DNA of 64,000 nt from an uncultured Acidobacteriota bacterium (GCA_963713825.1 CAVQNG010000014.1:64001-128000); one strand, 5' to 3'; shown: positions 21,987 to 49,328, counted from the first letter of the stretch. Notes: generated from the sequence alone by a model not told the origin. A program made the numbers and translations.

Positions 21987-22025
21987 GCGCCGGCAGGGAC
22001 CCCAACCGAACCCCCAGATCCGAAG
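21987..22025 (-). repeat. Degenerate copy of the tRNA-Arg 3' half (att scar A)
   Basis: GCGCCGGCAGGGACcCcAACC--GAACCCCCAGATCCGAAG compared with tRNA 49256-49296. Confidence 0.8.
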
Positions 22026-22077
22026 GTGCGAAGCTGAAACCTGCGAGGCCCGAGACCAGAGATCTCAGGATGGACGG

Positions 22078-22792
22078 CTACCACTCCACCATTTCGATCG
22101 CACCTCCGTCCAGGAGTTGGGCTGTCGCGTTCGCAGCGGTGGATGGAAATTTGCCTTTGTGAGAAATGGCAAGGCATGACCCCCTTCCTGGCATACGAGA
22201 GAGGAATCCGTGGATCGCGAAGACCACGTAGGGGCCAATCTCGACCGTCCCGCTCGACCGGAATCTCTGGTAGGACGTCCGCGGCTTCAAATGGATCGAA
22301 CACCCCTTCCAGAGCCTGTGTCAGCTTCATGGGAAAACGAGCTTCGAGATCCTTGCCAAGAGGAACCTGCGTCACGTCACCCGCCGCCATGAGGAGCGTC
22401 TCACCGCGGATCAAAGAGATGGCAAGATCAGCGGAAGACGATCTCGAGAGGTGAATCAGGTCGCCTGGTTGGCGGGCAGACATCACCTGCGTGTCGACGA
22501 AGAAGGATGCCGATGCGACCGACGCCAAGTGGCGACTTGGTGCGGTCAGCTTGATTCGACTTCGTAGAATATTGGGAAGCCAAACTCCTCGATCCCAGCC
22601 GGGGTTCGGCGTGGGGCCAGCGTCCTCGATTTGCATGTGAGGGGTATGCCCTACAAGGCGATGGTCCTGAAGCTTGCGCCCTGAGAGTTTGACGAGGTAG
22701 GTCAGCCGGGCCTCACACGACCCGCCCGAGTTTTCCCAATCCACAGGTATCTCGGCAACATAGTCGAACGTGCCACTGATGAGCATGACCAT
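22078..22792 (-). pseudogene. Hypothetical protein, frameshifted near 22255; C-terminal fragment of a paralog at 38.7 kb
   Basis: ORF 22792 joins ORF 22078-22290 (EIGPYVVFAIHGFL...AIEMVEW*); homolog IELGPYVIFAIHGFL...AIEMVQW* at 38682-38770. Confidence 0.55.
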
Positions 22793-23214
22793 GGTTCACC
22801 TCTATAGCTGTGCTGTCAAAAAGGAGGGTTGATGTAGTCGCTGAGCCGTGCCGCTCCCTTCAGTACTCCAACCCGATTCGCAGCATCAGGCGGCGGGGTT
22901 TGACCCACATTCTGGGCACGAACTCGTCGCCTTCATTGAGCACGTAGTCACCGAACTGGACAACCGCAGAGCTGTTGAGCAGGGATCTCGAAAGAACCGA
23001 AGAAAAGACTTGACAAGATTTTCGCGTCATTTTTCGGAGCCTCTGAGGTCGACCCTTGAAAGAGTCTGTGTGGCCCTGGGTGACTTCCTGCGTGGCGTAC
23101 CTCGCGATGCGTGACGAAAATGCCTCGAGGCCCCTCGATCGTGCGCCAGAAGACATCCTAAAGCGTTGAAAATAGTAGGTTTATAATGGTGCGTGACTCC
23201 TGGAGAGAACGCTC

Positions 23215-24537
23215 ATGATCGAACCTATTGCTACCCCGACTACGAAATCACAACTCGGCCCTGGAACTTCGGAGGTCGACCAGCTCGGCGATCGAATCGC
23301 CGAGCTCTCGGCCCAGATCCAGGCTGCCACCTACCACCTGCTGGTCCTGATCCGGGAGTTCGACGAGAAGAGCGGTTGGAACACCGGCTTTCGCTCCTGT
23401 GCCCATTGGCTCAACTGGCGCACTGGGCTCGACCTGGGCGCGGCCCGGGAGAAGGTACGAGTGGCCAAGGCCCTGGGCGAGTTGCCGCTTCTTTCCGAGG
23501 CGATGGGTTGTGGGGAGCTCTCCTACTCCAAGGTCAGGGCCCTGACCCGAGTGGCGACCCGTGAGAACGAGGCGGAGCTCCTCGAATTCGCTCGGGCTGG
23601 AACGGCCGCCCATGTGGAGAAGCTGGTGCGGGCCTGGCGCCGTGTCGATCGGCAGGACGAGGTCCACCGAGAGAATCTACGTCACGCCAGCCGCTACCTG
23701 GCGGCCACCACGGATTACGACGGCATGATCGTGCTACGGGCACGATTGGACCCGGAAGTGGGAGCCGCTCTGCTGAAAGCTCTGGAGGCAGCCGAGCAGG
23801 TGCTCTATGACAGAGAGCGGGAGACCAAGGACGAGCGAGGCGATGGAATCGCGGTCCGCCAGCGACGAGCGGATGCCATAGGTCTTGTCGCCGAAAGTGC
23901 GCTGGATGGCGGGATGGACCAAGGAACTCGGGCCGAGCGCTTGCAGGTGGTGGTGCATGTCGACGAGGAGGTTCTGGCCGATCCGCAAGCCGCAGGGGTG
24001 TCCATGCTGGAGGACGGCACAGACGTTTCCGCGGAAACGTCCCGGAGGCTCTCCTGCGATGCCGGCAAGGTGGTCATGAAACACGATTCCGAGGGCAATA
24101 TCCTCGATGTCGGCCGTCGAACTCGCACGATTCCCACCCCGATTCGCCGCGCTCTGACCGCCAGGGACGAAGGCTGCCAGTTTCCGGGCTGCGGATTGAA
24201 GCATTGCGAGGCTCACCACCTCAAACACTGGGCCGACGGAGGAAAGACCAGCCTCGAAAACCTGGTTCTGCTGTGTCGCCGTCACCATCGCGCCGTGCAC
24301 GAAGAGGGATACCGCATCGAGCACATTGGGGATGGCGGGCTGCGCTTCTTCCGACCCCAGGGCTGGGAGATTCCGAGCGTTCCTCCGCCACCACCCCTGG
24401 TCGAGGACCCCTTGGCGGAGCTCGAGAGCCTGCTCGACGAGGAAGACATCTCGATCGACTCCCACACAGGGTTTCCGCGCTGGCAGGGAGAGCGACTCGA
24501 CCTCAACTGGGCGGTCCAGGGCTATCGACAGCTGTGA
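23215..24537 (+). CDS. DUF222 + HNH endonuclease (13E12-repeat-like family)
   Basis: SCAHWLNWRTG, LSYSKVRALTRVA, RRLSCDA, RDEGCQFPGC, HHLKHWADGGKTSLENLVLLCRRHHRAVH. Confidence 0.92.
   Translation: MIEPIATPTTKSQLGPGTSEVDQLGDRIAELSAQIQAATYHLLVLIREFDEKSGWNTGFRSCAHWLNWRTGLDLGAAREKVRVAKALGELPLLSEAMGCGELSYSKVRALTRVATRENEAELLEFARAGTAAHVEKLVRAWRRVDRQDEVHRENLRHASRYLAATTDYDGMIVLRARLDPEVGAALLKALEAAEQVLYDRERETKDERGDGIAVRQRRADAIGLVAESALDGGMDQGTRAERLQVVVHVDEEVLADPQAAGVSMLEDGTDVSAETSRRLSCDAGKVVMKHDSEGNILDVGRRTRTIPTPIRRALTARDEGCQFPGCGLKHCEAHHLKHWADGGKTSLENLVLLCRRHHRAVHEEGYRIEHIGDGGLRFFRPQGWEIPSVPPPPPLVEDPLAELESLLDEEDISIDSHTGFPRWQGERLDLNWAVQGYRQL
24022..24041. repeat. 20-bp perfect palindrome, copy 1 (inside the HNH gene)
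   Basis: GACGTTTCCGCGGAAACGTC, encodes DVSAETS. Confidence 0.95.
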
Positions 24538-24544
24538 CGGACCC

Positions 24545-24564
24545 GGCGTTTCCGCGGAAACGTC
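24545..24564. repeat. 20-bp palindrome, copy 2 (19/20), 7 bp after the HNH stop
   Basis: GgCGTTTCCGCGGAAACGTC. Confidence 0.95.
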
Positions 24565-24618
24565 TGCGCACCCTCCTCAGGGCGCCCGAATCGGCTGGCA
24601 CCGTTCCCGATCCCCGAG

Positions 24619-24957
24619 TCACAGCGCCAGTACCAGGCGAATACCCTCATCAATGCGAGTCATCGCTTGGGTTGTCAGGCGACCGACCGGTTTAGAGAGA
24701 AAGGAGCGGTCGAGTGTGAGCAGCTGCGACACATTCACAACCGAGTCCTTGGGGAGCCAGCTGGTCTTCTTCTTCAGCAATACGTTGCCGGGAGAATCTG
24801 CCAGGCGTAGGTTCGATGTAATGACCGCGACGACAACGGTCTGAATCCGGCTGGCATTGAAGGCGTCGGATTGCACGATGAGGACAGGCCGGCGAAGCCC
24901 AGGGCCAGAGCCCTGAGGCCGGGGGAGTGAGGCCCACCGGATCTCCCCCCGCTGCAC
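24619..24957 (-). CDS. mazF: MazF/PemK-family endoribonuclease toxin
   Basis: QRGEIRWASL, GSGPGLRRPVLIVQSDAFN, VITSN, SVVNVSQLLTLD. Confidence 0.93.
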   Translation of the reverse strand: MQRGEIRWASLPRPQGSGPGLRRPVLIVQSDAFNASRIQTVVVAVITSNLRLADSPGNVLLKKKTSWLPKDSVVNVSQLLTLDRSFLSKPVGRLTTQAMTRIDEGIRLVLAL

Positions 24958-25193
24958 TACCAGTCCTCGGAATCCAGCGTAGCGAGTTGCAGGGTGTCGA
25001 GGATGGGATCGACTCGCGCTGGCTCGTCGCTGTAGATCTGGTTGAGACTCTCGGTGACTTCAAGGTGTTGATGCTCGGCCACGAAACACCGAACTGCCGT
25101 GGCATAGAGTCGGCTCCGGGAAAGACCCAAGCGTTGGGCAAGTTGCTCGGCTGCCTCGTAGACCTGGTCAGGAATCGAGATCGCGGTTTTCAT
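24957..25193 (-). CDS. Ribbon-helix-helix antitoxin (ChpI-like)
   Basis: MKTAISIPDQVYEAAEQLAQRLGLSRSRLYATAV; abuts the toxin. Confidence 0.9.
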   Translation of the reverse strand: MKTAISIPDQVYEAAEQLAQRLGLSRSRLYATAVRCFVAEHQHLEVTESLNQIYSDEPARVDPILDTLQLATLDSEDW

Positions 25194-25198
25194 GTCTA

Positions 25199-25220
25199 TA
25201 GTATAACCAAAGTTATACTA
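25199..25220. promoter_or_regulatory. Inverted-repeat operator of the MazEF-like operon
   Basis: TAGTATAAC-CAAA-GTTATACTA, 5 bp upstream of the antitoxin ATG. Confidence 0.7.
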
Positions 25221-25434
25221 ATGAGTCAGTGATGGAGCTGAGCTGATCCGACAGCCTGGAATCGAGCCGGGAAACAGTACCCCGGAGCTTTCTAGATCTT
25301 GGTCTATCTGTATGGAGCTTCGTTACGCTTCAGGTTGTGGATCGTCAGGAGTCCACCCTGACACCCAGTCGTAGCAAAGGCCTGTTGATATCCCCGAACC
25401 GTCGCAGAATCGGCTGCCCCCTATTCGCAGTTCC

Positions 25435-25454
25435 GACGTTTCCGCGGAAACGTC
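25435..25454. repeat. 20-bp perfect palindrome, copy 3 (intergenic)
   Basis: GACGTTTCCGCGGAAACGTC. Confidence 0.95.
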
Positions 25455-25815
25455 TTCAGGCGGGGGCAAACCCCGCCCCTGCTCTAATACCCACCCCTGC
25501 GCCTAAATTCGAGATCGGCTGGCACCCACCTAGTAACCCAACTAGTACGGGCAGTGGCGAAAGGGGAGAAACAGTGCACGAAGGCGTGAGGATGCGAACC
25601 AACCCCTTGGTCCACTCCTGGTCCATTTCGGTGGAACTTGTGGACGGTTCCCGAACTATCAGTAAGTCCTTCCGATAGGTTTCCGTGACAAGGGGAGGTA
25701 TCTCGGAGCCACGCGAGCGACTCGTGAATATTGAGATGACTGTCCCGATAGTTCAGACTAGGAAGACAAGGCTGGGCGCAAGTGCCGCCACTCAGAAACA
25801 GCCTGTGAGAGCTTT

Positions 25816-27006
25816 CTATTCCACTGTATTCGACCACGCCGAGGTGTCGCCGGACTCGAAGCCGTCTCTGAATAACAGCTGAGGGGTCATGTCTCCGAGG
25901 GCAACGTGATATGTGTCGTTCTCGTCGGAGCTAAGATCGGTACAGCTGAATCCACCCAGGCCATCTCCGAGACACAACCGATTCCGCGCCTGGTAGTTCC
26001 CGAAAACAGCATCGAGGTATTGATCGTCGTCGACGTAGCTTAGAGCGACACCAAGAGAGTCGAACTCGTCGGTACTGACATCGCCGCAGGTGAAGTGCCC
26101 GGCTCCATCTCCGAGGCACACTCGATTTCGACCGAAGGCGACCCCGAACACGGCATCGAGGTTCTGATCGTCGTCGATCAACCCCAAAGAAACTCTCGTG
26201 TGGAAGTGTTCGTCCGTGCTGACATCGCTACAAGTGAAGCCGCCCAGGCCATTGCCAATACAGACGCGGTTGCGTTGTTCTTTGTTGGCGAAGACGGCAT
26301 CGAGAATCTGGTCGTTGTCGATGTAGCCCAGAGCAACGCCAGTCGAGTAGAACTCGTCGCTACTGACATCACTGCAAGTGAAGCCACCCAAACCGTCCCC
26401 AAGGCAGATGCGATTGCGCGGCTGACTCGGGAAACCAGTACCCCAGACTGCAAAGACGGCGTCAAGGACCTGATCGTTGTCAACTAGGCCCAGCGCAACA
26501 TCTGTGGCACCAACGATGTCGGTGCCAACGTTGCTGCAGGTGAACTGTCCGGCTCCATCTCCGAGGCATACGCGATTCGGCGTGGCCGCATTGTGACCTC
26601 CAATGATGGCGTCGAGGTGCTGATCGCCATCAATAAGTCCGAGCGCCACGCCGGATGAGCCTTCTGCTACAGTATCGACATAACTGCAAGAGGAAAATCT
26701 CCCCAAGCCGTCGCCAAAGCAGACACGGTCGCGTTGATGTGCGCGATTGGCAAACACAGCATCGGGGTGCTGATCGCCATCCACGAGGCCGAGCGCAACC
26801 GTCCCGCCAGCGTCCTCGTCATCGCTGACATCACTACACATGAACCCTGCACCACCGTCGCCAAGGCAGAAACGATCTGGAGATCCCCAGACCGCAAAAA
26901 CAGCGTCTAAGGATTCACTCGCCGACACCGCCCCGGCACCGACCATTGCTGACAAAAGCACAATCAGTCCGGCACAGACTTTCAACCTCTCTCTCATCTC
27001 GAACAT
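25816..27006 (-). CDS. Secreted FG-GAP/VCBS-like repeat protein with C-terminal FxDGFESGD tail
   Basis: Signal peptide; 7 repeats of about 48 aa, DAVF...NRVCLGDGxGxFxCSDV...GVALG; ends LFRDGFESGDTSAWS. Confidence 0.85.
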   Translation of the reverse strand: MFEMRERLKVCAGLIVLLSAMVGAGAVSASESLDAVFAVWGSPDRFCLGDGGAGFMCSDVSDDEDAGGTVALGLVDGDQHPDAVFANRAHQRDRVCFGDGLGRFSSCSYVDTVAEGSSGVALGLIDGDQHLDAIIGGHNAATPNRVCLGDGAGQFTCSNVGTDIVGATDVALGLVDNDQVLDAVFAVWGTGFPSQPRNRICLGDGLGGFTCSDVSSDEFYSTGVALGYIDNDQILDAVFANKEQRNRVCIGNGLGGFTCSDVSTDEHFHTRVSLGLIDDDQNLDAVFGVAFGRNRVCLGDGAGHFTCGDVSTDEFDSLGVALSYVDDDQYLDAVFGNYQARNRLCLGDGLGGFSCTDLSSDENDTYHVALGDMTPQLLFRDGFESGDTSAWSNTVE

Positions 27007-27153
27007 CCTTTCCGCATGTGGATCGGGGGAATTCCCGGCCGGCCATATCGATAGGCACTTCGGCCCCTCCTTACAGGAACGGTGATCCGGTGATTCGGCC
27101 CTGAGCTATTCCGGGTGTGCCTTCGTCGAAGCACTTTCACTGTCTCCGCTAAT

Positions 27154-27181
27154 AGAAGGCCCAAGCGGACAGATTTGTTAC
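27154..27181 (-). promoter_or_regulatory. Putative ECF sigma promoter, copy 1
   Basis: Minus strand GTAACAAATCTGT-N7-GGCCTTCT, 147 bp upstream of the FG-GAP gene; matches 37699-37726. Confidence 0.6.
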
Positions 27182-27230
27182 CCCCAATTGACGGGGGCGC
27201 TCTCCGGGCCTGACCGTCTGAGGAAGGGAT

Positions 27231-29993
27231 CTAGAACTCAACCCTCAAGCCCAGCTCGTAGCGGCGGGGGAGCTGCCATTCGGTGGCGTCGCCTTGCTCG
27301 TACTCGCCACAACCGCTGACCCGGCCGCAGATGTCGGTAGCGTTCTCCGAGTCGAAGAGGTTGAGGACCGTTCCGATCAACCGTAGGCGGGTGCGCCCGA
27401 GGTTGAAATCCTTGGAGAGCTGGACGTCGAGCTGGCCCCACTCGTCTCCTTCACGGCTACCACGGGGCTCGACAAGAATGTTGCCCCAGGCACCTGGATC
27501 GACGGTGGCCGCAGGACGGACCGGGGTCCAACGGAAAGGCGACCCCCAGACTCCGTTGAATCCGATGCCGAAGTCCAGCGGCAAGAAGACATAACCGCTC
27601 GCCTTCAGTCGGTGCTTGCGGTGATAGCCGAGATAGCCGTCACGATTCGTGAAGTGGTAGGGATACAGATCGAAATCGGTCGACGCGATATTGCTGTGAG
27701 TCGAGCCTTCGGAATTGGAGTTGGTGTACGAGGCCAGCACGTGGAGGCGATCCAGCGCTCGGCTTTCGAAGCTCAAGAGCCATCCGGTGTAGTCGCGACG
27801 AGCCTGGGGAAGATTGGCGATGATGAATCCAGTGCAACTGGTACCGGTTGTAGGTGTCGGGTAGTTTTCGACACAGGTGTCGTCGAACACGTCGCGTGTG
27901 GCCTTGTCGACGTAACTCAGCTCGAGAGAGGTGCGGCGGAGGAGCTCCCTTTCGAAGCCGATGATGAAAGTATCGACGTACTGGGGTGTGAGATCGGACG
28001 CGATGACAGAGGGCTCTGACCCGACGGTATTGAAGAGTAGCCATCCCGCAGGATCCCAGTGGTTGGGATCAAAACGCCATTCCAGACCCTGGCTTGCACC
28101 CACTGCGGCGCACACCTCGGGATCAGTCACCCCCACGATGGTCGTGCAGGAGCCCCAGATCCTTCCGGTCTCCACCGCGGTGATCGCCGCGCGCGGCAAC
28201 TGAAGGAAGCTCGAGTGCATGAAGCGGCCCCCCGATGCTCGAAGAAGATTGCGTCCGTTCCGCGTCAGGTCCCAGGTGACCCCGAGGCGGGGCTGGAGCA
28301 TCTGGAGATCCGCCACCTCCTGCCCTATGTCGTTGTCGTAGATCGCGCGGTCCCAGCGAAGCCCGAGCTGAAGCGTGACATCCGGCCGCACACGCCAGGA
28401 ATCCTGAACGAACAGGTCGGTGATCGAGCCCGTCGTTTCATAGGGTCCCGAAGGCGACAGGGCCTGCATCAGGTACGGAATGCTGGTGCCGGAAGCGGAT
28501 AGATCACCGTACTGGTAGCCTTCCTCGCCTTGCCGACAGAGCCCTCCGCCCTGGATTCCGGTCCAACACGTATTCCGGTCTTGGGAGGTTTGGTGAATTT
28601 CGCCCCCAACCTTGATGTCGTGGCTGCCCAAGGCTTCATCCACGAACCAAGTGAAATCAGTGCCGACCTGGTCCCGTCGGATGCCTGTGGAGCGGAGCGT
28701 CAGATAGTTGCCGGTTATGAGTCCGGTGTCGAGGTTGTAGTGCTGTATCAGGGAGTTGTCACCGCTCATGGGGCCCAATTCGTCATCGACCCAGTCCGAA
28801 CCGATGTGCATCTCCCAGAGGAGGCTTCGCGCCAAGACCCCGGACACCTCGGCCTGGAAGAGGGTGTAGGGACGTTCCCAGCGACCCGTCGCCTCGGCAG
28901 CCGTGAATGTCCCGGAACCCGCATTGGTACTCTCAAAAGGGGTTCTGAGGTACTTTGCCTGGACCAACCAGTTCGGAGCCGCCTGACCGGTGATCTTGAT
29001 GAAGGCCGGGGTGCTTGCCTGTCGCTCCGTGGTGGGGGAATCGAGCCAGGTCCAGCGGTAGTCGTGCGACTCGAGCGAGCCGAAGAACCAGGCTCGGTCG
29101 CGAACGAGGCGGCCACCGAGGGTGACGCCCGCGATGCTCGTGCTCGAAGTCTGTTCGTCGGGATTGTAGTGATCCCCAGAGGTCTCGAGGTTGTTGTCCG
29201 TGTAGCGGATATCGACTGCTCCCGACCAGGCATTGCTGCCGGACTTCGTCAGCGCATTGATGACCCCACCCGTAGCACGTCCAAACTCGGCTTGGAAGCC
29301 TCCCGATTCGAAGGCCACCTCCTGGATGGCGAGGGTTGGGTATCCCACCTGAGGGCCACCCCAGCTCGGGCTCGTAGCATCGAGGCCGTCGATCAGGAAC
29401 ACGTTCTCTGACCCAGTAGACCCTAAAACGCTCTGGGTGAAGTAGAAACCAGACTCTCCCGCCGGAAACGTGGAGCCGGTCCCAGCCGCCTGCAGAATCA
29501 GCTGTATGTGCGAATAGCGAACGCCTAGGCCGACCGCTGCCTCCTGGATGAAGTCGTTGGTGAAGCTCTGCCCCGTGGACACTCTCTGAGGATCCACTAC
29601 GGGTGTCGTTTCGGTGACCGTGATCTCGTCCCCATATCTGGCGAGCGGCAGGACGACCCGCACCTGAGCCATGCGCTCCAGGCGCACCTGGACCTCGGTG
29701 AGCTCCTGGGTGTGGAAGCCGTCGAGCTCGAGGCGCACGGTGAAGTACCCGGGGCTCAGACGGGGATACTGGAACCATCCCTCGGCGTCGGTCTGGGTCG
29801 TCTGGACTCCGCCGATCTGGTTGGGAGAACTCGCTGAGACCGCGACACCGGGCAGTGGCACACCTTCCCCGTCGACTACAAAGCCCGAAAGCCGCCCCGT
29901 AGTTCCAGCGTGAACGGGTTCGGCCAGGGTCAGAACTACAGCAGCCATTGCGATGATCAGGCATGCGGATGGGACAGCAGCTCCCGCTTTCAT
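27231..29993 (-). CDS. Oar-like TonB-dependent receptor with N-terminal carboxypeptidase-regulatory-like domain
   Basis: Signal peptide, GVPLPGVAV, AEFGRATGGVINALTKSGSN, FVQDSWRV, LGLRWD, terminal Phe. Confidence 0.92.
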   Translation of the reverse strand: MKAGAAVPSACLIIAMAAVVLTLAEPVHAGTTGRLSGFVVDGEGVPLPGVAVSASSPNQIGGVQTTQTDAEGWFQYPRLSPGYFTVRLELDGFHTQELTEVQVRLERMAQVRVVLPLARYGDEITVTETTPVVDPQRVSTGQSFTNDFIQEAAVGLGVRYSHIQLILQAAGTGSTFPAGESGFYFTQSVLGSTGSENVFLIDGLDATSPSWGGPQVGYPTLAIQEVAFESGGFQAEFGRATGGVINALTKSGSNAWSGAVDIRYTDNNLETSGDHYNPDEQTSSTSIAGVTLGGRLVRDRAWFFGSLESHDYRWTWLDSPTTERQASTPAFIKITGQAAPNWLVQAKYLRTPFESTNAGSGTFTAAEATGRWERPYTLFQAEVSGVLARSLLWEMHIGSDWVDDELGPMSGDNSLIQHYNLDTGLITGNYLTLRSTGIRRDQVGTDFTWFVDEALGSHDIKVGGEIHQTSQDRNTCWTGIQGGGLCRQGEEGYQYGDLSASGTSIPYLMQALSPSGPYETTGSITDLFVQDSWRVRPDVTLQLGLRWDRAIYDNDIGQEVADLQMLQPRLGVTWDLTRNGRNLLRASGGRFMHSSFLQLPRAAITAVETGRIWGSCTTIVGVTDPEVCAAVGASQGLEWRFDPNHWDPAGWLLFNTVGSEPSVIASDLTPQYVDTFIIGFERELLRRTSLELSYVDKATRDVFDDTCVENYPTPTTGTSCTGFIIANLPQARRDYTGWLLSFESRALDRLHVLASYTNSNSEGSTHSNIASTDFDLYPYHFTNRDGYLGYHRKHRLKASGYVFLPLDFGIGFNGVWGSPFRWTPVRPAATVDPGAWGNILVEPRGSREGDEWGQLDVQLSKDFNLGRTRLRLIGTVLNLFDSENATDICGRVSGCGEYEQGDATEWQLPRRYELGLRVEF

Positions 29994-30018
29994 CGAGGCT
30001 CTCCTTCCAGGTACAGCA

Positions 30019-41800: not shown

Positions 41801-41937
41801 GTCAGTTGGGTGAATTCCACTTTCGGCAGCAGGTCGATCGGCAGACTGCGGAACGAGACGATCCCGACGACGATCAGCATGAGAAAGACCATCGTCGTGG
41901 CGACAGGCCGGTGGATGGAGACCTCGGTCAAGCGCAT
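38827..41937 (-). CDS. AcrB/AcrD/AcrF-family RND efflux permease
   Basis: 1036 aa; RPVAT, GLIVDSAIVVLE, GIVVNNAIVLVD, RLRPILIT. Confidence 0.95.
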   Translation of the reverse strand: MRLTEVSIHRPVATTMVFLMLIVVGIVSFRSLPIDLLPKVEFTQLTVRVGYPNVGPEEVEQIITDRIENAVAGLPNLERVTSQSEEGSSRVRLEFARGTSIDEAANDLRAALDGLRDDLPVEASAPRVFKLDLDRVEVVSLAVTSTRDLEEVTRLLEDELARRFEQIPGVGAIDIRGGVYREIRVELDRDRLQATGLTALDVERALARENVTLPTGTVKSGFNDLYIRSLGEYRSLEEIALTVVATPGGRPVRVRDIGEVRDAYEDVRYLVEMNGVPSISLGIQKQSGGNTVEVARAVRHEAELINQERDDIQLTVVVDQSDFIRQSIGNVQRSAIWGSFLAIGVLYLFLRNRSSTLIITLAIPISVIATFALLFFGGQTLNQMTFGGLALGVGLIVDSAIVVLESIVRKREEEDLPPPEAARIGTRDVAGAITASTLTTCVIFVPVVFTRTTTGALFQALALVVVFALICSLFVALTLVPMLASRFLHLPPREELERSPHHRLQRRLESWYTDRLRFAMRHRGRVFALTGLALALAIAAWPLIPVELAPQTEADEIDIQLEMERGTNIAVARAYTDELEDRVRAVVPAGDVRLFSTEIRGDNAAVELKLESQNQRQLASSELADLVRREVDGRVPGGLLEVEAQQGLWMLNRVFSSGGGSDALELELRGWELDRADRIAADMRRRMEAVPGVTDVRVSRREGRPEERLILDRERISELGLSVREVGQTLLANVAGIEAGRYREAGYEFPITVRLRRQDRQISQDLDGVTLRTPQGAVVALSSLVERQRGRGPVEIDRVDGQRVTYVTANLESGVALGDAVEGVRAALAGLELPSGFTILYGGQYEEQIAARRDFTIAIIMALVLVYMLMAAQFERFFDPLIVMLAVPMALIGVVPTLLLTGTTLNIQSVMGLVMLIGIVVNNAIVLVDAINLLRRERQMGAADAIIEAGRLRLRPILITTATTVLGLVPLALGLGVGGEIQASLARVVIGGLLASTLVTLILIPVTYSTVANWVALSRASKRKWADESPDQQAIA

Positions 41938-43361
41938 TTCATGGCTCCACCGGTTTCTGTCTCTTGGCAGCGGCCTCCTCGAGGACTTGTTCCACCACCT
42001 GCTTCGCTCGCGGGGATCTCGGCCCCGAGAGCAGCGGCTATCGTGCGCTGTTTGTCGAGAAAGCTCTCGAGCAGGTCCTCGTCCTGCAGGTCCTGAAGCT
42101 CCATAACGCGATCCCAGCTTGTCGGGCGGATGCGAGCAACTGCTGTGCCGACGCCCTTCGGACCTTCATCGGAGTCTGGACCGGCGGCCTTCGCCGCCAA
42201 CTCCGACTGCTCGTTCAAGAGGTGCTGCCCAACGGTCACGACCCAGGCATCCGCCGCGATGCCGGTAACTCCCGCGGCACCGCGGCCCTCAGCCAGGATG
42301 TCGATCGGCCGAAACACCACCCGATAGACGGTCTCCGCGCTCCAGGTATCGGCTTCGGCAGGCTCTTCGAGGCCTGCCGCTTCCTGGACCTCGAAGACTC
42401 CACGCTGGCCAGAAGCCGGATTCTCCCAGACCGCGCCCACCGGCACGAGGATCGCCTGCTGGCTCTGACCGACGAGAATGCGCACGGTGGCGAACATCCC
42501 TGGCCTCAGTGCGCCGGCGCGATTGTCGACATCGATCTCACCCAGGGTCGTAAAGCTGTCCGCGGCAAGAAAGGGGGAGATGCGCGACAGAAAAGCCCGG
42601 ATCGGCTCAGCTGCCGCCGAGCGGGTTGCGATCTCCACCGACTGGCCCACTTCGACACGGGAGAGCATGGCTTCGGTCAGATCGACTTCGACAATCAGCT
42701 CGTTCAGATCGCCCATCACAAAGAGGATATCTGCGGAGTCGACCAACATTCCCACTTCGGCGCGACGCTCGCCGAGTTGGCCGGAAACCGGAGCGCGTAC
42801 AACGGTCTTGGCTCTGGAGGAACGCCTCTCTACGGCTGTAGCCTGCGCCTGCTCGACGCGTGCCGTGGCTTCGTCGGTGCTGGCATGAAGGGTGTCGAGC
42901 TGAGCTTCGAGCGTCTCGAGCTCCTGCTCACTGATCAGTTCCTCAGCCGCCAGGGTTCGGGTCCTGGCCACCCGTGCCTCGAGCTCCACGACCCGGGCTC
43001 TGGCCGCCGCCGCACTTGCTTCCGCCAGACGGACATTGGCTTCGGCCTGTCGCAGCCGTTCGCGGGCCTCGACTTCGTCCAGACGAACCAGAGGCTGGCC
43101 ACGTTCGACCACCTCGCCGCTGCGGACCAGGACTTCCACGACTCGGCCCTCCATCTCTGGACGGATCGCCACCTGATTGCGGGCTCGGACCACGCCGGGC
43201 ACCGTCACCTCGATTGGCAGTGCACCAACGCGAGACTGAACCGCCTCTACCAGGGGTGCCAGTGTCGGCTTGCTCTCCTCGCGGTCGGTGCTCCCGCAGG
43301 CAAGGCCAAACACCAGGCACAGGCATACTGCGGCGCGGAGTATGGGTTGAAGAGTGTTCAT
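41928..43361 (-). CDS. RND periplasmic adaptor (membrane fusion protein), lipoprotein
   Basis: Lipobox LAC, GEVVERGQPLVRLD, VRAPVSG, LRPGMFA; C-terminus probably frameshifted near 42001. Confidence 0.9.
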   Translation of the reverse strand: MNTLQPILRAAVCLCLVFGLACGSTDREESKPTLAPLVEAVQSRVGALPIEVTVPGVVRARNQVAIRPEMEGRVVEVLVRSGEVVERGQPLVRLDEVEARERLRQAEANVRLAEASAAAARARVVELEARVARTRTLAAEELISEQELETLEAQLDTLHASTDEATARVEQAQATAVERRSSRAKTVVRAPVSGQLGERRAEVGMLVDSADILFVMGDLNELIVEVDLTEAMLSRVEVGQSVEIATRSAAAEPIRAFLSRISPFLAADSFTTLGEIDVDNRAGALRPGMFATVRILVGQSQQAILVPVGAVWENPASGQRGVFEVQEAAGLEEPAEADTWSAETVYRVVFRPIDILAEGRGAAGVTGIAADAWVVTVGQHLLNEQSELAAKAAGPDSDEGPKGVGTAVARIRPTSWDRVMELQDLQDEDLLESFLDKQRTIAAALGAEIPASEAGGGTSPRGGRCQETETGGAMKCA

Positions 43362-43629
43362 CGCCCTGATCTTTCCCCTTCGACACCCCGCTCAGCCAGA
43401 ATCGAACGGGGCGGTAGACTATCAGCTGAGCGGTCGGACACGCTTCAGCTTCTCTTCTCGGGCCTCGCTAGGCGGGTGTGGCGACCGGATTTGAATTCAC
43501 CGGCATGAGCGGTTTCTGGTGCGGGTGGGGTGAAATGATGAGCAGGGGGTCGGTACTCGAGATCATGGTGGCGCCATGCTTGGCAAAGACCTCACACAGG
43601 ATAGGCCCCATGAACAGGTGCGCAGTGGC

Positions 43630-43812
43630 CAGGAAGACCGAGAGCTGCTGGCGTCGAGCCAGGTTCTCGAGGACGAGGTGACGTCGAGTTCGGAAGGCTG
43701 AAGATGTGGACCGGAGGAACACTCCAAGAAGGCGAATCATCACGCGGAGAGGATATCCGCTACCGGTGTGAAGGCTGCTGTCTACTGGACGGATGAGAAA
43801 ACGACAGGGACA
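43630..43812 (-). mobile_element. IS relic: left end and N-terminal fragment of an integrase-core-type transposase
   Basis: FRTRRHLVLENLARRQQLSV is homologous to the 46.6 kb ORF; end TGTCCCTGTCGT...CATCCG at 43812. Confidence 0.7.
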
Positions 43813-43827
43813 ACCGAGGGTCAGCCA

Positions 43828-46407
43828 CTAGCCGCTACTGGTCTCGGCGAGAAAACGCTCGTGGCATGCCTTGCCGGCGGCGCGGACGTCGGCCCACTCC
43901 TCGGCAAACTCGGGATCATTGCGCAGGCTGGCAATCAGAGGATCGGTATCGATGTGCGGGTACGAGCAGTAACCCCCATCGATCGCCCGCTCCAACAACT
44001 CTAGAGCGACCTCGTGCTCGCCGGCGAAAGCAAAAATGGCCGCATTCCAGTGGACCTGCTCCACGTCATTGAGGAGGTCCGTGAAACCCATCTCTTGCTG
44101 CAGTACCTCCGGCGCCATGGTCCGATCTTCCAAAACGGGCTCGAGACTCGCTGCCAGGATGGTATAGCTCGTATTCCGTGACAGCTCCAGCGCCTCCTCG
44201 AGGCGCCCTTGCCGTATCCGAACGACGGCCAGATTGCCAAAGTAGAAGTCGTTGCCAGGACTCAGATCGAGGAACTGCTCGGCCCGATCGTAGCGACTCG
44301 CCAGGTAGTTGGTGATGCCGCACGATCGAAAGCCTGGGTTGTTCGGGTCGAGACCGAGGGCCGTATCGCAATCCCGCACCGATTGCTCGATCGCACCGGC
44401 ATAGCGCAAAAGGTAGGCGCGGAGAAAATAGACCCGGCCAACTCTTGGGCGCTGTTCGATCAACTGACTCGCGGCCCTGTAGGCCTTGGCCAGCTCACCA
44501 CGCTCGATATCGATCATGATGACCCGCACTTGTGGCTCGATCAGCTCGGGATCGAGCTCCAAGGCCCGGTGGGCAGCTTCGATGGCCCTGTCACTGTCCT
44601 CGAATGTACCGCCGCCGTAAAGCACGTAGAAATGCAGGCGATTGGCCAGCTCTCCCCAGGCTGGCGCGTAGTTCGGGTCGAGCTCGACGGCCCGCTCCAC
44701 CAGGGCCAAAGCCTCGCTATTCGGAGCGGGATCCGAGCTCATCGAGAGGCTACGTAGATAGAAATTGTACGCTTCCTCGTTGGTCGGCAACGTACCGGTC
44801 GACGCCAGCGTGGCGCCGGGATCGAGAATCGGCATCAATCCCTGCTCCACCCTCTCGGCCACCGCTTGGCGGAGCGACAAGAGCTCCTGCCATCCAACCA
44901 CGACACTGTCTCGCCAGACCACGCTATTGCCATCGACATCGATAGCCTCGAGCGTCAGTCTCAGCTGATCCCCCTCTTTGAGATACTGACCCGTCACCAC
45001 GTTGGCAACACCAAGCTCTCGCCCGAGGGTCAAGGGATCTGTTCCCGCGGTATCGAGCCGCGAGGTGGTCGAGAAGGGGCGAATCGACAGACCCGAGCCG
45101 CGACTCAAGGCCGTCGTGATTTCATCAGGCACCGCCAGTCGCAGATAATCCAGCTCGGCGTTCGCGCCGAGATTGGCAAACGGCAGCACGGCAACAGAGC
45201 GCGGATCCTGCTCTTCAGCTGCGACTGCAACCGCATCGGTGGTCTCGGTTGGAGCCGATGTTTGCCGGCCCTGCCACCAGAAGATTCCCACAACGAGGAT
45301 CCCCGCTGCTGCGACGATTGCCCCGAGCAGACCCCACGGACGCCTCGCTTCTGGCTGCGGTCCACTAACTTGCGCCGGGACCTCGGCGACGGACGAAGCC
45401 GGATCAGTCACAACCGTCGCGCCGCCGCTGACCGCAGACGCTGGTGCACTCACAGGTGGCCCTGGAGCGCTCGAAACGGGCCCGCTCGCCGCAGCTCCCT
45501 GGAGCACGGGTGTCCCGGTGGTCGTCGAGAGCTGCCCCGAGTCGACCTCGCCGCGGAGCCCTTCAAGCTCATTGCGCACGTCTTTGGCCGACTGGTAGCG
45601 CCGCTCCGGGTCTTTCTCCAAACAGTGCTGAATGATCCGCGCCAGGTGGCGCGGCAGATCGGCCCGCATCTCGACCACCGAGGACGGCGTGTCCTTCAGG
45701 ATGCTCGAAGCTAGCTCGATCCCCGAGTCGCCTTGAAAGGGTCGCCGACCGGTGACCATCTCATAGAGCAAGATGCCGAACGAGAAGATATCGGTGCGCG
45801 AGTCCACCTCTTTACCGCTCAGCTGCTCGGGACTCATGTAGGGCGCGGTGCCCATGACAGTGCCTTCGCCGGTCAGCGCTGCCGATTGCGTCAGCGCTTC
45901 GGTCGCCACATCCAAAAATGTAGTCGGCGAGGTTTCCGTCGCCAGCTTAGCGAGCCCGAAATCCAAAACTTTGATATTGCCGTCGGCGGTGACCATGACG
46001 TTGGCTGGCTTCAAATCCCTATGGGTGATGCCCTTCTCGTGCGCTGCCGCCAAGGCATCGGCCAGCGGAATGGCATACGCAAAGACCTCGGCCAGCGGCA
46101 TTCCACCCGGCGGCAGAACCCGATCGAGGCTCCTGCCCTCGACCTTTTCCATCACCAGCAAACGCCGTCCCTCGGCCTCTTCCACATTGAACAGCGTGAC
46201 GATATTGGGATGATTGAGCGATGCCACAGCCCGCGCCTCGCGCCGAAACCTCTCCAAGCGCTCCGGGCTCTCCTCGGCCATCGGCGGCAAGATCTTCAGT
46301 GCAACCTCCCGGCCGAGCTCCGTATCCTCGGCCAGATAGACCTCACCCATCCCACCCTCACCGAGCTTCGCAACGATTTTGTACCGCGAGAGAGTCTTTC
46401 CGATCAT
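43828..46407 (-). CDS. Ser/Thr kinase - TM - TolB-N-like/TPR protein
   Basis: GEGGMGEVY, HRDLKPAN, DFG, GTAPYMSPE; TM helix; SVAVLPFAN; TPR repeats. Confidence 0.93.
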   Translation of the reverse strand: MIGKTLSRYKIVAKLGEGGMGEVYLAEDTELGREVALKILPPMAEESPERLERFRREARAVASLNHPNIVTLFNVEEAEGRRLLVMEKVEGRSLDRVLPPGGMPLAEVFAYAIPLADALAAAHEKGITHRDLKPANVMVTADGNIKVLDFGLAKLATETSPTTFLDVATEALTQSAALTGEGTVMGTAPYMSPEQLSGKEVDSRTDIFSFGILLYEMVTGRRPFQGDSGIELASSILKDTPSSVVEMRADLPRHLARIIQHCLEKDPERRYQSAKDVRNELEGLRGEVDSGQLSTTTGTPVLQGAAASGPVSSAPGPPVSAPASAVSGGATVVTDPASSVAEVPAQVSGPQPEARRPWGLLGAIVAAAGILVVGIFWWQGRQTSAPTETTDAVAVAAEEQDPRSVAVLPFANLGANAELDYLRLAVPDEITTALSRGSGLSIRPFSTTSRLDTAGTDPLTLGRELGVANVVTGQYLKEGDQLRLTLEAIDVDGNSVVWRDSVVVGWQELLSLRQAVAERVEQGLMPILDPGATLASTGTLPTNEEAYNFYLRSLSMSSDPAPNSEALALVERAVELDPNYAPAWGELANRLHFYVLYGGGTFEDSDRAIEAAHRALELDPELIEPQVRVIMIDIERGELAKAYRAASQLIEQRPRVGRVYFLRAYLLRYAGAIEQSVRDCDTALGLDPNNPGFRSCGITNYLASRYDRAEQFLDLSPGNDFYFGNLAVVRIRQGRLEEALELSRNTSYTILAASLEPVLEDRTMAPEVLQQEMGFTDLLNDVEQVHWNAAIFAFAGEHEVALELLERAIDGGYCSYPHIDTDPLIASLRNDPEFAEEWADVRAAGKACHERFLAETSSG

Positions 46408-46461
46408 GTCTGCAGACCGATTGTAGAACTTCCAGCCCCCGCATGGGAGGGCGCAAGGCCC

Positions 46462-47320
46462 TGTAGGGCGCCAGAACCCCATCCGCCCAACGAAATCGTT
46501 GACACCCTGCAGTGATCGCCGGCTGACTGAGCTGATGCTCTAGATCTTCTTCACGATCGTGAGGACGCTCCGATCTGCCCTCAAGGTTCGGCGAGATTTC
46601 GTCCTCGAGAACCTGGCACTTCGACACCAGCTCGCTGTCCTGACGCGCTCGGGTAACCGTCCCCGCTTTCGCCCAGCTGATCGCTTTCTCTGCACCTGGC
46701 TCCGGTCTCTCTGGGACTGTTGGAGACAATCGCTTGTCCTCGTTCTCCCGGCAACCGTCGTTCGCTGGCATCGCGAGGGTTTCCGGCGATATTGGGCTCG
46801 GAAGTCTCGTCGCCAGCCGGGTAGACCGCGAGTCGATCCAGAGCTCTTGAGACTCATCCGCCTGATGGCCACTACAAACCCACTTTGGGGAGCGCCTGAT
46901 CGGTTCTGTCCGGCGCGAGTGCCTCGATCACGTAATCGTCCTTGGAGAGGCACATTCGCGCCACGTCCTCGGCACCCACTTCGCCTACTACCAGCGCTCG
47001 AGAATCCACCTCTTCCTGAACAAAGATGCTCCCAACCCGACAGACATCCAGCCACCGGCGATGGGTGAGGTCATCGAGCTACCCGAAGTCGGTGGGCTCC
47101 ATCATCGCTACGAACGCCGGGCGGCCTGACCACTGGACCGCCTCTCCGAGATCAGCGCCCTCTAGCCCGCCCCAAAGCTGGACCGCTGCGCCCGAGCCCC
47201 GAACGCGGCCCGCAGAAGTCACCGCTCCGACCCTGGCACGGGCCAGTCGGCGTGCGCCCATCGAAGGATCGGAGCCCAATCCCGCGCATAATCGGCCAGA
47301 CGGGGTTTACGATACGGACA
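46462..47320 (+). mobile_element. Internally deleted IS (integrase-core/IS3-IS481-like transposase pseudogene)
   Basis: N-terminal LENLALRHQLAVL, PATVVRWHR, NPLWGAP joined to C-terminal GGLHHRYERRAA*; imperfect terminal IRs TGT...AACCCC at 46462 and 47320. Confidence 0.8.
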
Positions 47321-47425
47321 AGGAGATTGCACATACCAATGGACCGTGGATGGACCATGTGAGCTGGAGGTGTCTAGTGTCGCCACTTGACCTTACGGCA
47401 AATGTCCTGTTTTGAGGGAGTTGCT

Positions 47426-47470
47426 TGGCGCGCCGGCAGGGACTCGAACCCCGAACCCCCAGATCCGAAG
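47426..47470 (-). repeat. Perfect 45-bp copy of the tRNA-Arg 3' half (att C)
   Basis: Identical to 49252-49296; identity ends at the anticodon loop. Confidence 0.95.
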
Positions 47471-47536
47471 CAGGGGGGTTCAGGGACTTCTCAGAAGGTT
47501 CTCTTGAGCCCCTGGGACCGTTTCGGCAAAGCTGAG

Positions 47537-48058
47537 CTAGGGCTTCCCGCCGTCAGAAACTCGGAAACCCAGAGGATTCAGTAGTAGTTCAGGTGCGACG
47601 ACCTCGGGTTGCTTCATGTCGAGCGGTCTACAGGGCGAGTGGGCCAGGAACAGCGACAACTCGAGCAGAGTCATTTCGGGCTCGGTGGCCAGAATGTCCC
47701 TGGTCATGTGGGTGAAATCGGTCATCGATCCAAGCACCACGCGGCTGTTTGTCCGTCCGTAGTACATTGGATCCATCAGGGACAACTCGCGATCGATAGC
47801 CTCTTGCGGAACCTTCAGCGCGAGGAGCACGTCTGTGAGAAGTCTCAGGAATCGCTTTTCAAAATGGTCGAGATCCCGAGCTGTCGTGACGATCGGGAGC
47901 AGGGACCGCTCGCTGACCAGGATTAGAAAGTGCCCCTGCGGGGTGTAGACGATGTTTGCGAACCAATCTCCCAGCCGATTCTCTGGAGGGGGCGGCTCGC
48001 CTGGATCTCGGATTCCCAGCCGTTTGAGGAGCTTCGCCGTGCATCGAAGGGTCGTCAT
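47537..48058 (-). CDS. Conserved hypothetical protein (DUF6933-like)
   Basis: LRCTAKLLKRL...LGDWFAN...SERSLLP...TNSRVVLGSMTDF pattern. Confidence 0.7.
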   Translation of the reverse strand: MTTLRCTAKLLKRLGIRDPGEPPPPENRLGDWFANIVYTPQGHFLILVSERSLLPIVTTARDLDHFEKRFLRLLTDVLLALKVPQEAIDRELSLMDPMYYGRTNSRVVLGSMTDFTHMTRDILATEPEMTLLELSLFLAHSPCRPLDMKQPEVVAPELLLNPLGFRVSDGGKP

Positions 48059-48123
48059 GGTTCTTCCTCGTCCAATGCAGATGGGGGCAGAAAGCCGTGC
48101 CTGATGAAGAAGCCTCCTGGGAA

Positions 48124-48462
48124 TCAGTCAGCGAGAGTCCGCTCGAGAGCATCGATCATCTCGCGCAGATCAGTCGACACGACATTCCAGACAATGTCAT
48201 GGTCCACCGCGGCGTAGCCGTGTACCAGACGATTCCTCATGCCGATGATTTCCTTCCAGGGAATCTCGGGCGAGTTCGCCCTGGTCGAAGGTGAGACCTT
48301 GCTCGCAGCCTCGCCGATGACCTCGACAAAGCGCTCCAGGGCTGCAGCCAGGATCAGGTCAGAGTCGAGATCTGATCGATCCTTCTCTGCGACCGCTTCA
48401 ACTGCCCGGCGGGCGTGATCGAGCATGTCGCGAAGGAGAACGTTGTCTTCAGGCGGCCTCAT
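48124..48462 (-). CDS. HepT-like (DUF86/HEPN) ribonuclease toxin
   Basis: VIGEAASKV, IPWKEIIGMRNRLVHGY (RxxxxH). Confidence 0.92.
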   Translation of the reverse strand: MRPPEDNVLLRDMLDHARRAVEAVAEKDRSDLDSDLILAAALERFVEVIGEAASKVSPSTRANSPEIPWKEIIGMRNRLVHGYAAVDHDIVWNVVSTDLREMIDALERTLAD

Positions 48463-48751
48463 AGATGGGTATCGCTTCGGCAGTCACGCGATCGCGGAAG
48501 TGTGGGCTGAGGAACCCGGGTGTGTTCAGGTCGACCTCTCGCCCGACCAGGTTTGACAGTTCATCCTGTATAGCGATGAATTGCAGGCCTACGTTGTGCC
48601 CCGGGATGAACTCGACGAGCAGGTCAATGTCGCTGTCTGGATGCAGTTCGCGCCGCGCAGCCGATCCGAAGACAGCCAAGCGGCGAATGCCATGTTGCCG
48701 ACACAGCTCAGCGAGCTTTCGTTGGTCGATCTCGAGTACTGCCCGGTTCAT
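48449..48751 (-). CDS. Minimal nucleotidyltransferase (MNT) antitoxin
   Basis: FGSAARRELHPDSDIDLLVEF. Confidence 0.92.
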   Translation of the reverse strand: MNRAVLEIDQRKLAELCRQHGIRRLAVFGSAARRELHPDSDIDLLVEFIPGHNVGLQFIAIQDELSNLVGREVDLNTPGFLSPHFRDRVTAEAIPIYEAA

Positions 48752-48939
48752 CGCCTCGTGATGATACCGCAGTGAGGCTGAGTGGTAAGGGGCGGGTGAG
48801 GTCCTCTAGTGGGTGGGACGTGAGGTGGAGAAGGGCGTAGGTACAGCCCCCGTCAGTCTGCCGAACGCGAGCGACAGGGTAGAACTGGAGAACTACTCTC
48901 AGGTGTGAGTCAGGAAGCTGCGTCTGAAGTACCGACACC

Positions 48940-49148
48940 AAGCGCCGGGCTTCGAGCCTCAGCGAGTATCGGCCGTTCACTCTCTCGAACTGATTTGCCT
49001 TCGTCTGGCTGTGAGGAAGGGTAGCGAGAACGAACATTCTTGGCATGAAACCAAGAGCGCCGGCCTCGTGAACATCTCGAATTTCGATGGGAAGAACTCG
49101 AGCGGAGGGCCGGTCTTCCAACAGCAGGTGCTGGCGCATCAAGCCCAC
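48940..49148 (-). pseudogene. Truncated plasmid-type replication initiator (RepA_C-like) fragment
   Basis: EAGALGFMPRMFVLATLPHS...FERVNGRYSLRL resembles the N-terminus of IncW-like RepA; similarity is lost after about 65 aa. Confidence 0.6.
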
Positions 49149-49251
49149 CGCAATCCCTGCCTGCGCACCAATAGCGCACCAAATCGCCGATTTGGGGGTC
49201 TGAGGCCGACTCCAAGAATCGATGTAAATGTCTTAGTTTGAGGGAGTTGAG

Positions 49252-49328
49252 TGGCGCGCCGGCAGGGACTCGAACCCCGAACCCCCAGATCCGAAGTCTG
49301 GTGCTCTATCCAATTGAGCTACCGGCGC
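49252..49328 (-). tRNA. tRNA-Arg (anticodon TCG)
   Basis: GCGCCGG TA GCTCAATTGGATAGAGC A CCAGA CTTCGGA TCTGG GGGTT CGGGG TTCGAGT CCCTG CCGGCGC GCCA; 77 nt with encoded CCA. Confidence 0.97.

Follow-up and report, generated by a model that had tools for sequence, protein, structure and literature searches.

The stretch of DNA analysed here, called the window throughout, comprises 64,000 nucleotides (C14:64001-128000) of the 348-kb contig C14 in a metagenome-assembled genome (MAG) of an uncultured Acidobacteriota bacterium, G000, whose assembly totals 5.42 Mb in 38 contigs. The only tRNA gene in the window is an intact tRNA-Arg(TCG) on the minus strand at 49252-49328 (found by ARAGORN; Rfam score 68 bits), and 27 kb beside it are occupied by a stack of three segments delimited by displaced copies of the tRNA 3' half, the 45 nt (49252-49296) that form the attachment site (att) core. 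BLAST of the tRNA against the window returned a copy with 45/45 identities at 47426-47470 (R1, E 4e-21), one of 41 columns with 2 mismatches and 1 gap at 21987-22025 (R3, E 2e-7), and two pieces of a third (R2) at 38537-38557 (21/21, E 9e-7) and 38605-38627 (21/23, E 3e-3). All three copies are direct, in the tRNA's own orientation, and the next-best matches in the window are 11-12-mers with E values of at least 0.2. In the whole assembly, fragments of tRNA-Arg(TCG) are confined to this locus, and the remaining matches belong to other tRNAs, either genes or their copies. An earlier note, made from the sequence alone, had placed same-orientation copies at 47426, 38537 and 21987, ending at the anticodon loop and separating segments of about 1.8, 8.8 and 16.5 kb; all of this holds, with segments of 1781 bp (A), 8798 bp (B) and 16511 bp (C). 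Scars of att type bound each of them: R1 and the tRNA for A, R2 and R1 for B, and R3 and R2 for C. The junction in R1, R2 and R3 reads ...CCGAAG (TCGAAG in R2) and corresponds to C32, the first base of the anticodon loop, beyond which the flanks no longer resemble the tRNA 5' half. The same C32 boundary is common to every copy read, in G000, in the related genomes G001, G004, G041 and G042, and in the metagenome contig L033. Judged from these sequences, the repeats are well supported as putative att-type scars of site-specific integration into a site that runs from the anticodon loop to the tRNA 3' end. The GC content across the locus is flat, at about 0.56-0.65.

The three scars differ in structure. 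R1 (47400-47470, minus strand) carries the perfect 3' half and a further 26 nt that match the present downstream flank of the tRNA gene, the arm on the side of a replication gene, at 21 of 26 positions; the R1/tRNA repeat is thus 71 bp long (47400-47470 against 49226-49296, 93% identity) and reaches 26 nt beyond the tRNA end. R2 (38537-38627, minus strand) is composite: the last 21 nt of the tRNA are separated by a 24-nt spacer from a complete but degenerate 3' half (33/45). The earlier note had located this copy correctly and had taken it for a split one; it is not an insertion-split copy, and the same composite structure recurs in other genomes. A 234-nt query spanning the composite matched five of 45 genomes, including G000, with about 90% identity in G001, two copies in G042 (88-91%), two copies in G004 with a canonical inner part, and a partial copy in G041. 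R2 is therefore old and inherited, its degenerate pattern being about 90% identical in other genomes and genera. R3 (21983-22025, minus strand) is a degenerate 3' half with 37/45 identities in which the first 4 nt of the tRNA end have been replaced.

Segment A contains a truncated gene, here RepA' (48930-49148, minus strand), for the N-terminal 73 codons of a replication initiator of the RepA_C (PF04796) type; about 100 nt separate its start from the tRNA 3' end, and its counterpart in G004 has 311 aa. RepA' is 79%, 66% and 65% identical to the RepA proteins encoded beside tRNA-Arg in G003, G004 and G041, respectively, and 50-58% identical to those beside tRNA-Leu. It is followed by a toxin-antitoxin pair at 48124-48751 on the minus strand, composed of a HepT toxin (48124-48462) and an MntA-type nucleotidyltransferase antitoxin (48449-48751), and by a DUF6933 gene (47537-48058, minus strand), the terminal gene of the segment, which adjoins R1. 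A DUF6933-like stretch beside the tRNA in G009 aligns over about 75 nt with no adjacent scar and is uninformative.

Segments B and C have related left ends. Directly right of R3 lies g249 (22081-22792, minus strand), a full-length gene of 249 aa interrupted by one frameshift (residues 1-180 at 22792-22253 and residues 187-249 at 22269-22081), and right of R2 lies a remnant of the same gene, g249' (38681-38797, minus strand), comprising its last ~42 codons with a 26-codon in-frame deletion. Both genes read toward the scar, with stop codons about 55 nt from the R3 and R2 junctions, respectively, and their 3' ends on the minus strand account for the homology between the right flanks of the two scars (21995-22103 against 38595-38706, 79%; 22183-22242 against 38708-38767, 82%). 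A structured RNA in these ~190 bp common to R2 and R3 was considered and dismissed, because Rfam detects nothing but the tRNA and the shared stretch is the 3' end of a protein gene. Since B and C both start with g249 at about 80% DNA identity, two related elements probably entered the locus at different times.

The g249 product has no Pfam family and belongs to a family with 382 representative clusters; a full-length homologue from metagenomes (P0002, 249 aa) is about 76% identical to the fragment. Its AlphaFold model is confident (pLDDT 95.5, pTM 0.92) and beta-rich, and it has no match among known folds in the PDB (best Foldseek E 0.057; best VIA-align Z 3.7, with a root-mean-square deviation of 4.7 over 91 residues) and no usable match in the ESM Atlas. 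Among 301 sampled Acidobacteriota genomes g249 is present in two, and the second copy has no tRNA nearby. A hidden recombinase was therefore rejected on the basis of the missing Pfam family, the missing PDB match and the non-tRNA copy, and g249 looks like cargo.

The main cargo genes of segment B are likewise on the minus strand. An AcrB-type resistance-nodulation-division (RND) pump (38827-41937) and its membrane-fusion protein (41928-43361) together occupy 38827-43361, and a Ser/Thr kinase with TPR repeats lies at 43828-46482. Pfam and NCBIfam give no match for two further open reading frames (ORFs), 43468-43743 and 46559-47068. In contigs from three metagenomes, each from a different study, the kinase stretch (43812-46484) is inverted with respect to the sequence around it, with the joint at 43812|46484 on opposite strands, and an imperfect inverted repeat (43636-43676 against 46639-46599, 83%) lies outside it; either an invertible segment or polymorphism between strains may account for this. 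In one metagenome run, position 43812 is joined to 38537 with 7 nt between them.

The locus was compared with that of relatives, all of them MAGs labelled Thermoanaerobaculia bacterium or Acidobacteriota, including five genomes of the same genus; G004 belongs to this genus, G041 to another and G007 to a third, and none of the conclusions depends on G006, a genome flagged as unpublished. An acyl-CoA dehydrogenase gene to the right of the tRNA and an aldehyde dehydrogenase gene to the left of the stack are conserved flanks, and the cargo between them differs in G001, G003, G004 and G041. None of the five same-genus genomes carries segment B or C at this locus, so the region is not shared syntenically by relatives. 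In G004, one contig runs from the aldehyde dehydrogenase through several genes, a GGDEF/EAL gene, an M28 peptidase gene and DoxX to a composite scar, a BrnT/BrnA pair (610 bp), a second composite scar and the contig end; a second contig carries a degenerate scar, a TerB-like gene, the RepA_C gene and the tRNA. In G041 the order is DoxX, about 3.7 kb of other sequence, a 45-nt scar, a BrnA/BrnT pair, a composite scar, 5 kb of cargo, RepA_C, the tRNA and the acyl-CoA dehydrogenase. G042 has two composite scars 1.1 kb apart that adjoin DoxX, and G001, which lacks DoxX, has a composite scar at a distance of 80 bp from the SDR/aldehyde-dehydrogenase flank. In G007, a tyrosine integrase of 346 aa (PF00589, 93 bits) is encoded 111 nt from tRNA-Arg(TCG), in the same place and orientation as RepA in G000, and a 48-nt scar is found on another contig.

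Other comparisons yielded less. The kinase/sigma module of the stack occurs at about 74% identity elsewhere in G004. An AcrB/membrane-fusion pair in G003 (76%) was rejected as the same element, as it has a different context, no scar and no g249. In G016 no scar was found within 20 kb downstream of tRNA-Arg(TCG), and the site might be empty; its flanks lack homology to those of the locus, however, which makes it unusable as an empty-site reference. The BrnT/BrnA mini-block of about 610 bp is bounded by tRNA-Arg scars in two genera (L002 of G004, 1-730; L019 of G041, 9356-10067); in G004 it is enclosed by two composite scars that agree at every position over at least 70 nt, and the pair seems to be all that is left of a decayed element. 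Toxin-antitoxin pairs thus occur in or beside the blocks both in G000 and in the relatives.

Repeats of this length raise the question of whether a site-specific recombinase is needed to account for the stack. RecA-dependent exchange or unequal crossing-over on repeats of 45-90 nt could operate at low frequency on the 71-bp R1/tRNA repeat and on the composite repeats of at least 70 nt in G004, and would explain why an integrase is not needed now. However, homologous recombination moves or deletes existing blocks and leaves unexplained how foreign DNA acquired its first tRNA segment, whereas the same anticodon-loop boundary next to unrelated cargo in several genomes argues for an inherited attP made for an integrase, and G007 has such an integrase at the same site. 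We consider it very unlikely that homologous recombination alone built, or is now reshuffling, the locus.

No recombinase gene is present in the stack itself. A six-frame search of the whole genome with the PF00589 profile gave 6 matches, none of them on contig C14: two Xer-sized frames (312 and 315 aa), which we read as Xer proteins, a 451-aa frame at C25:523198, a 448-aa frame on C35, a fragment at C3:1156518, and one match below threshold. The assembly thus has two intact non-Xer integrases. The serine recombinase profiles PF00239 and PF07508, searched in the same way, matched only at C3:798-1662 and not on contig C14, and tblastn with the G007, C35 and C25 integrases against the window gave nothing (best E 0.3). 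These results agree with the statement of the earlier note that the 27 kb hold no tyrosine or serine integrase. Pfam searches with the candidate ORFs tested across A, B and C detected no integrase, relaxase or coupling protein either.

The C25 integrase is associated with a different kind of structure. Its frame starts within a tRNA-Lys(CTT) gene, and positions 1-64 of this tRNA (100% identity), together with the first 82 integrase codons (82%), are copied 12 kb away. The region C25:511958-524499 therefore resembles an island bounded by repeats of the 5' part of the tRNA. The C25 integrase is 43% identical to the G007 integrase at tRNA-Arg(TCG).

We propose, with a probability of roughly 60%, that the locus arose by tandem accretion of integrative elements that have since decayed to integrase-less blocks resembling cis-mobilizable elements (CIMEs). 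Mobile elements carrying positions 32-76 of tRNA-Arg(TCG) as attP would have inserted by tyrosine-type site-specific recombination, each insertion rebuilding the tRNA and displacing the previous 3' half outward, which would have left R1, R2 and R3. The elements would later have lost their integration genes, if these were ever present, and most of their backbone genes through deletion, and the CIME-like blocks between the att scars would be the remainder. With the tRNA on the minus strand, the P arm of each element would lie at the right edge of one scar, and its P' arm at the left edge of whatever follows, another scar or the tRNA itself. Block A (47471-49251) would then be the 1.8-kb rump of a RepA_C-type, plasmid-like element that kept RepA', HepT/MntA and DUF6933. 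Block B (38628-47425) would be an element with the g249 remnant at its start, the RND pump and kinase as cargo, and the 26-nt remnant of a RepA-type arm at its end. Block C (22026-38536) would start with the frameshifted full-length g249 and end with DoxX, and has been invaded and reshuffled later, as its HNH unit, PemK pair and 12.8-kb block show. Toxin-antitoxin addiction and useful cargo would have favoured retention of the blocks after the mobility genes had gone. In favour of this explanation are the scars confined to one locus with a fixed junction, the g249 genes that open both B and C, the cargo that varies among relatives, the integrase at this tRNA in G007, the arm-like 26 nt left of R1, the truncated RepA', the toxin-antitoxin pairs, and published descriptions of the same process.

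Several observations weigh against this explanation. Neither PF00589 nor tblastn finds even a fragment of an integrase in the 27 kb, and for this reason integrase loss is something that we infer rather than see. RepA-type elements elsewhere in G000 likewise have no integrase and often keep RepA, so that never having had an integrase fits as well as having lost one. The decay of identity with distance from the tRNA that the earlier note had claimed is not steady: R1 has 45/45 identities, and the inner copy of R2 (33/45) is more diverged than the more distant R3 (37/45). The proposal of that note that the stack is a chronological record of at least three integrations therefore stands as regards integration scars, but not as a clean clock, given that R2 is old and inherited and segment C is a mosaic. 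In a MAG of 38 contigs, integrase-bearing elements may be unbinned, and a 12.8-kb block of segment C occurs twice in the assembly. Contigs from four metagenome runs compared with window positions 31001-51000 contain no excision or circle junction; these contigs are short, ending at R1 or the tRNA, and since such contigs break at repeats the absence is uninformative on mobility. Two further points concern the limits of segment C: the M28 gene, DoxX and a scar stand in a row in G004, with no scar between M28 and DoxX, while a remnant of M28 lies outside segment C here; and in G041 DoxX is 3.7 kb from the nearest scar.

Segment C is the awkward part of this explanation, and it is a mosaic of several parts. 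A unit with a DUF222-HNH endonuclease gene (22988-24565, plus strand; gene at 23215-24537) is followed by a PemK/MazF toxin gene (24619-24957, 87 bits) and a weakly matching ribbon-helix-helix antitoxin gene (24957-25193), which form a pair at 24619-25193 on the minus strand. The DUF222-HNH unit has a second copy at C5:43213-44790 (91%) and occurs in at least eight places in G004 at 78-83% identity, and with so many copies it behaves like a selfish gene. The 12.8-kb cargo block at 25222-38018 encodes, according to Pfam, an FG-GAP protein, a CarboxypepD_reg outer-membrane barrel, a kinase-nSTAND1-WD40 protein, an extracytoplasmic function (ECF) sigma factor and two pectinesterase-like paralogues. 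A 12-nt direct repeat is found at 25171-25182 and 38007-38018. DoxX (38029-38418, minus strand) lies directly left of R2, and outside the segment, left of R3, 72 nt from the 3' end of an M28 peptidase gene survive (21714-21785, minus strand), a gene that is intact in G004.

DoxX adjoins a scar in G004, G042 (where only the gene start is on the contig) and the metagenome contig L033 as well as in G000, so C can represent one integration only if DoxX is the terminal gene of the element. Alternatively, DoxX could be the original chromosomal neighbour of the tRNA, in which case there would have been two integrations, and R3 with g249 would have been placed by a secondary rearrangement, either duplication or translocation of a scar-g249 junction or homologous import from another strain. 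The uninterrupted order M28-DoxX-scar in G004 and the M28 remnant left of R3 would both be expected from such a history, R3 lacks its first 4 nt as at the edge of a deletion, and one block of the mosaic segment C recurs as a separate contig. Against a chromosomal DoxX, in G001 the composite scar and the SDR/aldehyde-dehydrogenase flank are 80 bp apart and DoxX is missing, and the outer neighbour of DoxX differs among G000, G004 and G041, as for the terminal gene of a mobile unit. The tRNA part of R3 is also nearer in sequence to the tRNA (37/45) than to the inner copy of R2, so it was not copied from R2, and the order scar, g249 ... DoxX, scar, g249' is the expectation for two tandem elements of the same family. 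The order DoxX-scar-g249 on L033 is that expected at a two-element junction or in a circle. Two integrations are, in our view, a minority possibility of real weight; we lean slightly toward segment C being a true third unit. Whether or not it was a single unit, C has been reshuffled later.

Contig C38 (12,797 bp) is, over its whole length, a reversed copy of window positions 25222-38018 with one mismatch, at 27673, and may be a redundant contig or a population structural variant. A block that occurs twice in a MAG could indicate that part of the stack, especially segment C, was misjoined. R1, R2, R3 and their junctions, however, all lie outside the duplicated block, and contigs from other samples are at odds with a misjoin. 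Part of the region 42000-51500 is contained in 18 runs from 12 studies, mostly sediment metagenomes. The junction DoxX-R2-g249'-AcrB is independently spanned by the metagenome contigs X3 (1182 nt, 38346-39529, 32 differences) and X1 (329 nt). In another sample, L033 (2050 bp) joins what lies left of R2 to what lies right of R3, in the order DoxX, canonical 45/45 scar, full-length g249, which confirms a junction of this type. An assembly artefact is thus a most improbable source of the stack.

Displaced tRNA fragments are not peculiar to tRNA-Arg in this genome. Comparison of its 49 tRNA genes with the whole assembly revealed 26 tRNA-derived fragments of at least 20 nt that are not genes, originating from 9 tRNA genes, including 7 of tRNA-Ser(TGA) (six at most 48 kb from the gene), 5 of tRNA-Glu(CTC), 4 of tRNA-Leu(TAA) and two perfect 47-nt copies of tRNA-Lys(TTT). 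Further integrase-less stacks are found in G000 at C3:453908-501606 (six tRNA-Ser(TGA) scars in 48 kb), C1:1-66000 and C11:3358-15192, and a RepA_C gene stands beside each of the tRNA-Leu(TAA) scars.

When the 283 ORFs of the island regions were clustered, RepA_C was the sole protein family common to them, with 9 members in 6 of the 9 regions. Five of these nine copies have at least 257 aa, and one is on a contig that bears an integrase. In 7 of 11 matches, RepA is preceded at a distance of 100-200 nt by a tRNA 3' half or by the tRNA itself (tRNA-Leu(TAA) in five, tRNA-Lys(TTT) in one and tRNA-Arg in one), and in other MAGs tRNA-derived sequence precedes 4 of 10 RepA loci, with too little upstream DNA to judge in 2 of the 10. 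A search of the PDB with the RepA profile gave no match. Two compact units consist of RepA and cargo without any recombinase, one of 5.4 kb on C11 bounded by 47/47 repeats and one of 5.6 kb on C1 with genes for an AraC regulator and a sulfatase. A more complete relative on contig C35 has genes for an integrase, RepA, an AlpA-type helix-turn-helix protein, a DnaB-like helicase and NikA/MobC. Thus the module of an own integrase plus a rep gene, which is complete in the C35 relative, is absent from the window, where rep is a 73-codon fragment and the integrase gene is missing. A 1.6-kb stretch within the C35 element (C35:9910-11522) is 99.6% identical to C6:16046-17655 and corresponds to an ORF of 545 aa without an assigned family; both contigs carry RepA_C.

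These units suggest another origin for the blocks, at least for those of the RepA_C type, as hitch-hiking, plasmid-like integrative replicons that never encoded an integrase, carried only a tRNA-derived att beside repA, and were inserted and excised in trans by a few resident or visiting integrases. The recurrence of RepA_C as the only shared family, the tRNA-derived sequence upstream of it in G000 and in other MAGs, the scar-bounded C11 and C1 units, and the 26 tRNA scars set against two intact non-Xer integrases would all be consistent with this origin, as would the closer similarity of the tRNA-Arg-linked RepA sequences to one another (79, 66 and 65%) than to the tRNA-Leu-linked ones (50-58%). 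Conversely, the C35 element demonstrates that the family is able to encode its own integrase, and several RepA copies are broken or frameshifted. The tRNA-Ser stack, with 7 scars, has neither RepA nor an integrase, which indicates that the absence of integrases is general and not specific to RepA. MAG binning may also conceal integrase-bearing elements, and the metagenome contigs, which break at repeats, provided no evidence of mobility. Overall we regard an origin of the blocks as passengers of this type, the main rival to accretion and decay, as unlikely. The broader idea that RepA_C-plus-att units form a lineage-wide Thermoanaerobaculia family of integrase-free integrative replicons, with several tRNA targets and integrases supplied in trans, is likewise doubtful at present, and accretion followed by decay remains our preferred explanation.

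Loci of this kind are already known. Islander arrays contain an intact tRNA gene and displaced 3' fragments, and Islander calls require an integrase gene inside the island. The present stack resembles these tandem arrays in having an intact tRNA followed by direct 3' copies that start in the anticodon loop, and differs from Islander-type islands in having no integrase gene inside. SGI1 (Salmonella genomic island 1) reportedly has a plasmid-type rep gene and can replicate after excision. As in SGI1 and other integrative and mobilizable elements (IMEs), the elements proposed here would combine integration with a replication initiator, and tandem arrays are possible at the attachment site; however, SGI1 has its own integrase and excisionase and targets trmE, whereas in the window rep is truncated, int and xis are absent and the target is a tRNA gene.

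The closest parallel is the accretion of CIMEs with integrative and conjugative elements (ICEs) or IMEs. PMC5704250 describes a route in three steps, in which an element integrates, then decays to a CIME whose att sites persist while its integration and transfer genes are lost, and a new element integrates at attR; it cites Pavlovic 2004 and Bellanger 2011 for ICESt1 and ICESt3 of Streptococcus thermophilus. The present locus shares with ICESt1/ICESt3 the att-bounded tandem blocks at the 3' end of the target and the lack of integration and transfer genes in the blocks, and an origin by integration, decay and renewed integration is proposed for it as well. Unlike ICESt1/ICESt3, the stack is without any functional element, its host is an uncultured member of the Thermoanaerobaculia (Acidobacteriota), and its sole backbone remnant is a RepA_C replication gene and not a set of conjugation genes. 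In Prochlorococcus, according to 10.1101/2020.12.28.424599, islands grow beside tRNA genes as tycheposons integrate one after another; partial tRNAs and degenerate elements stay behind, and the majority of the islands built in this way contain no element. Growth next to a tRNA gene, partial tRNAs and the usual absence of an active element are features common to both systems, but a tycheposon is defined by a tyrosine or serine recombinase of its own together with a primase/helicase module. The present locus has neither, and its marker is RepA_C. Titles and opening lines of abstracts retrieved with 'Thermoanaerobaculia' and 'genomic island' contain nothing on such loci. The locus stands out for lacking any recombinase, for a RepA_C remnant at the position that an integrase occupies in a relative, for the composite scar common to several genera, and for the two related left ends.

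In annotation, island finders based on integrases would miss the entire 27 kb. The locus suggests that in these uncultured sediment Acidobacteriota a tRNA hotspot collects accessory genes, which become fixed once the mobility genes vanish; here they include toxin-antitoxin pairs, kinases, an RND efflux pump and a sigma factor/receptor operon. The ratio of 26 scars to two intact integrases in the genome raises the question of whether integrase-less cassettes depend on helpers or are mere wreckage, and the recurrence of RepA_C beside att sites sharpens it. If such a family is real, integrase-free replicons would explain how 26 scars at 9 tRNA genes came to accompany only two non-Xer integrases.

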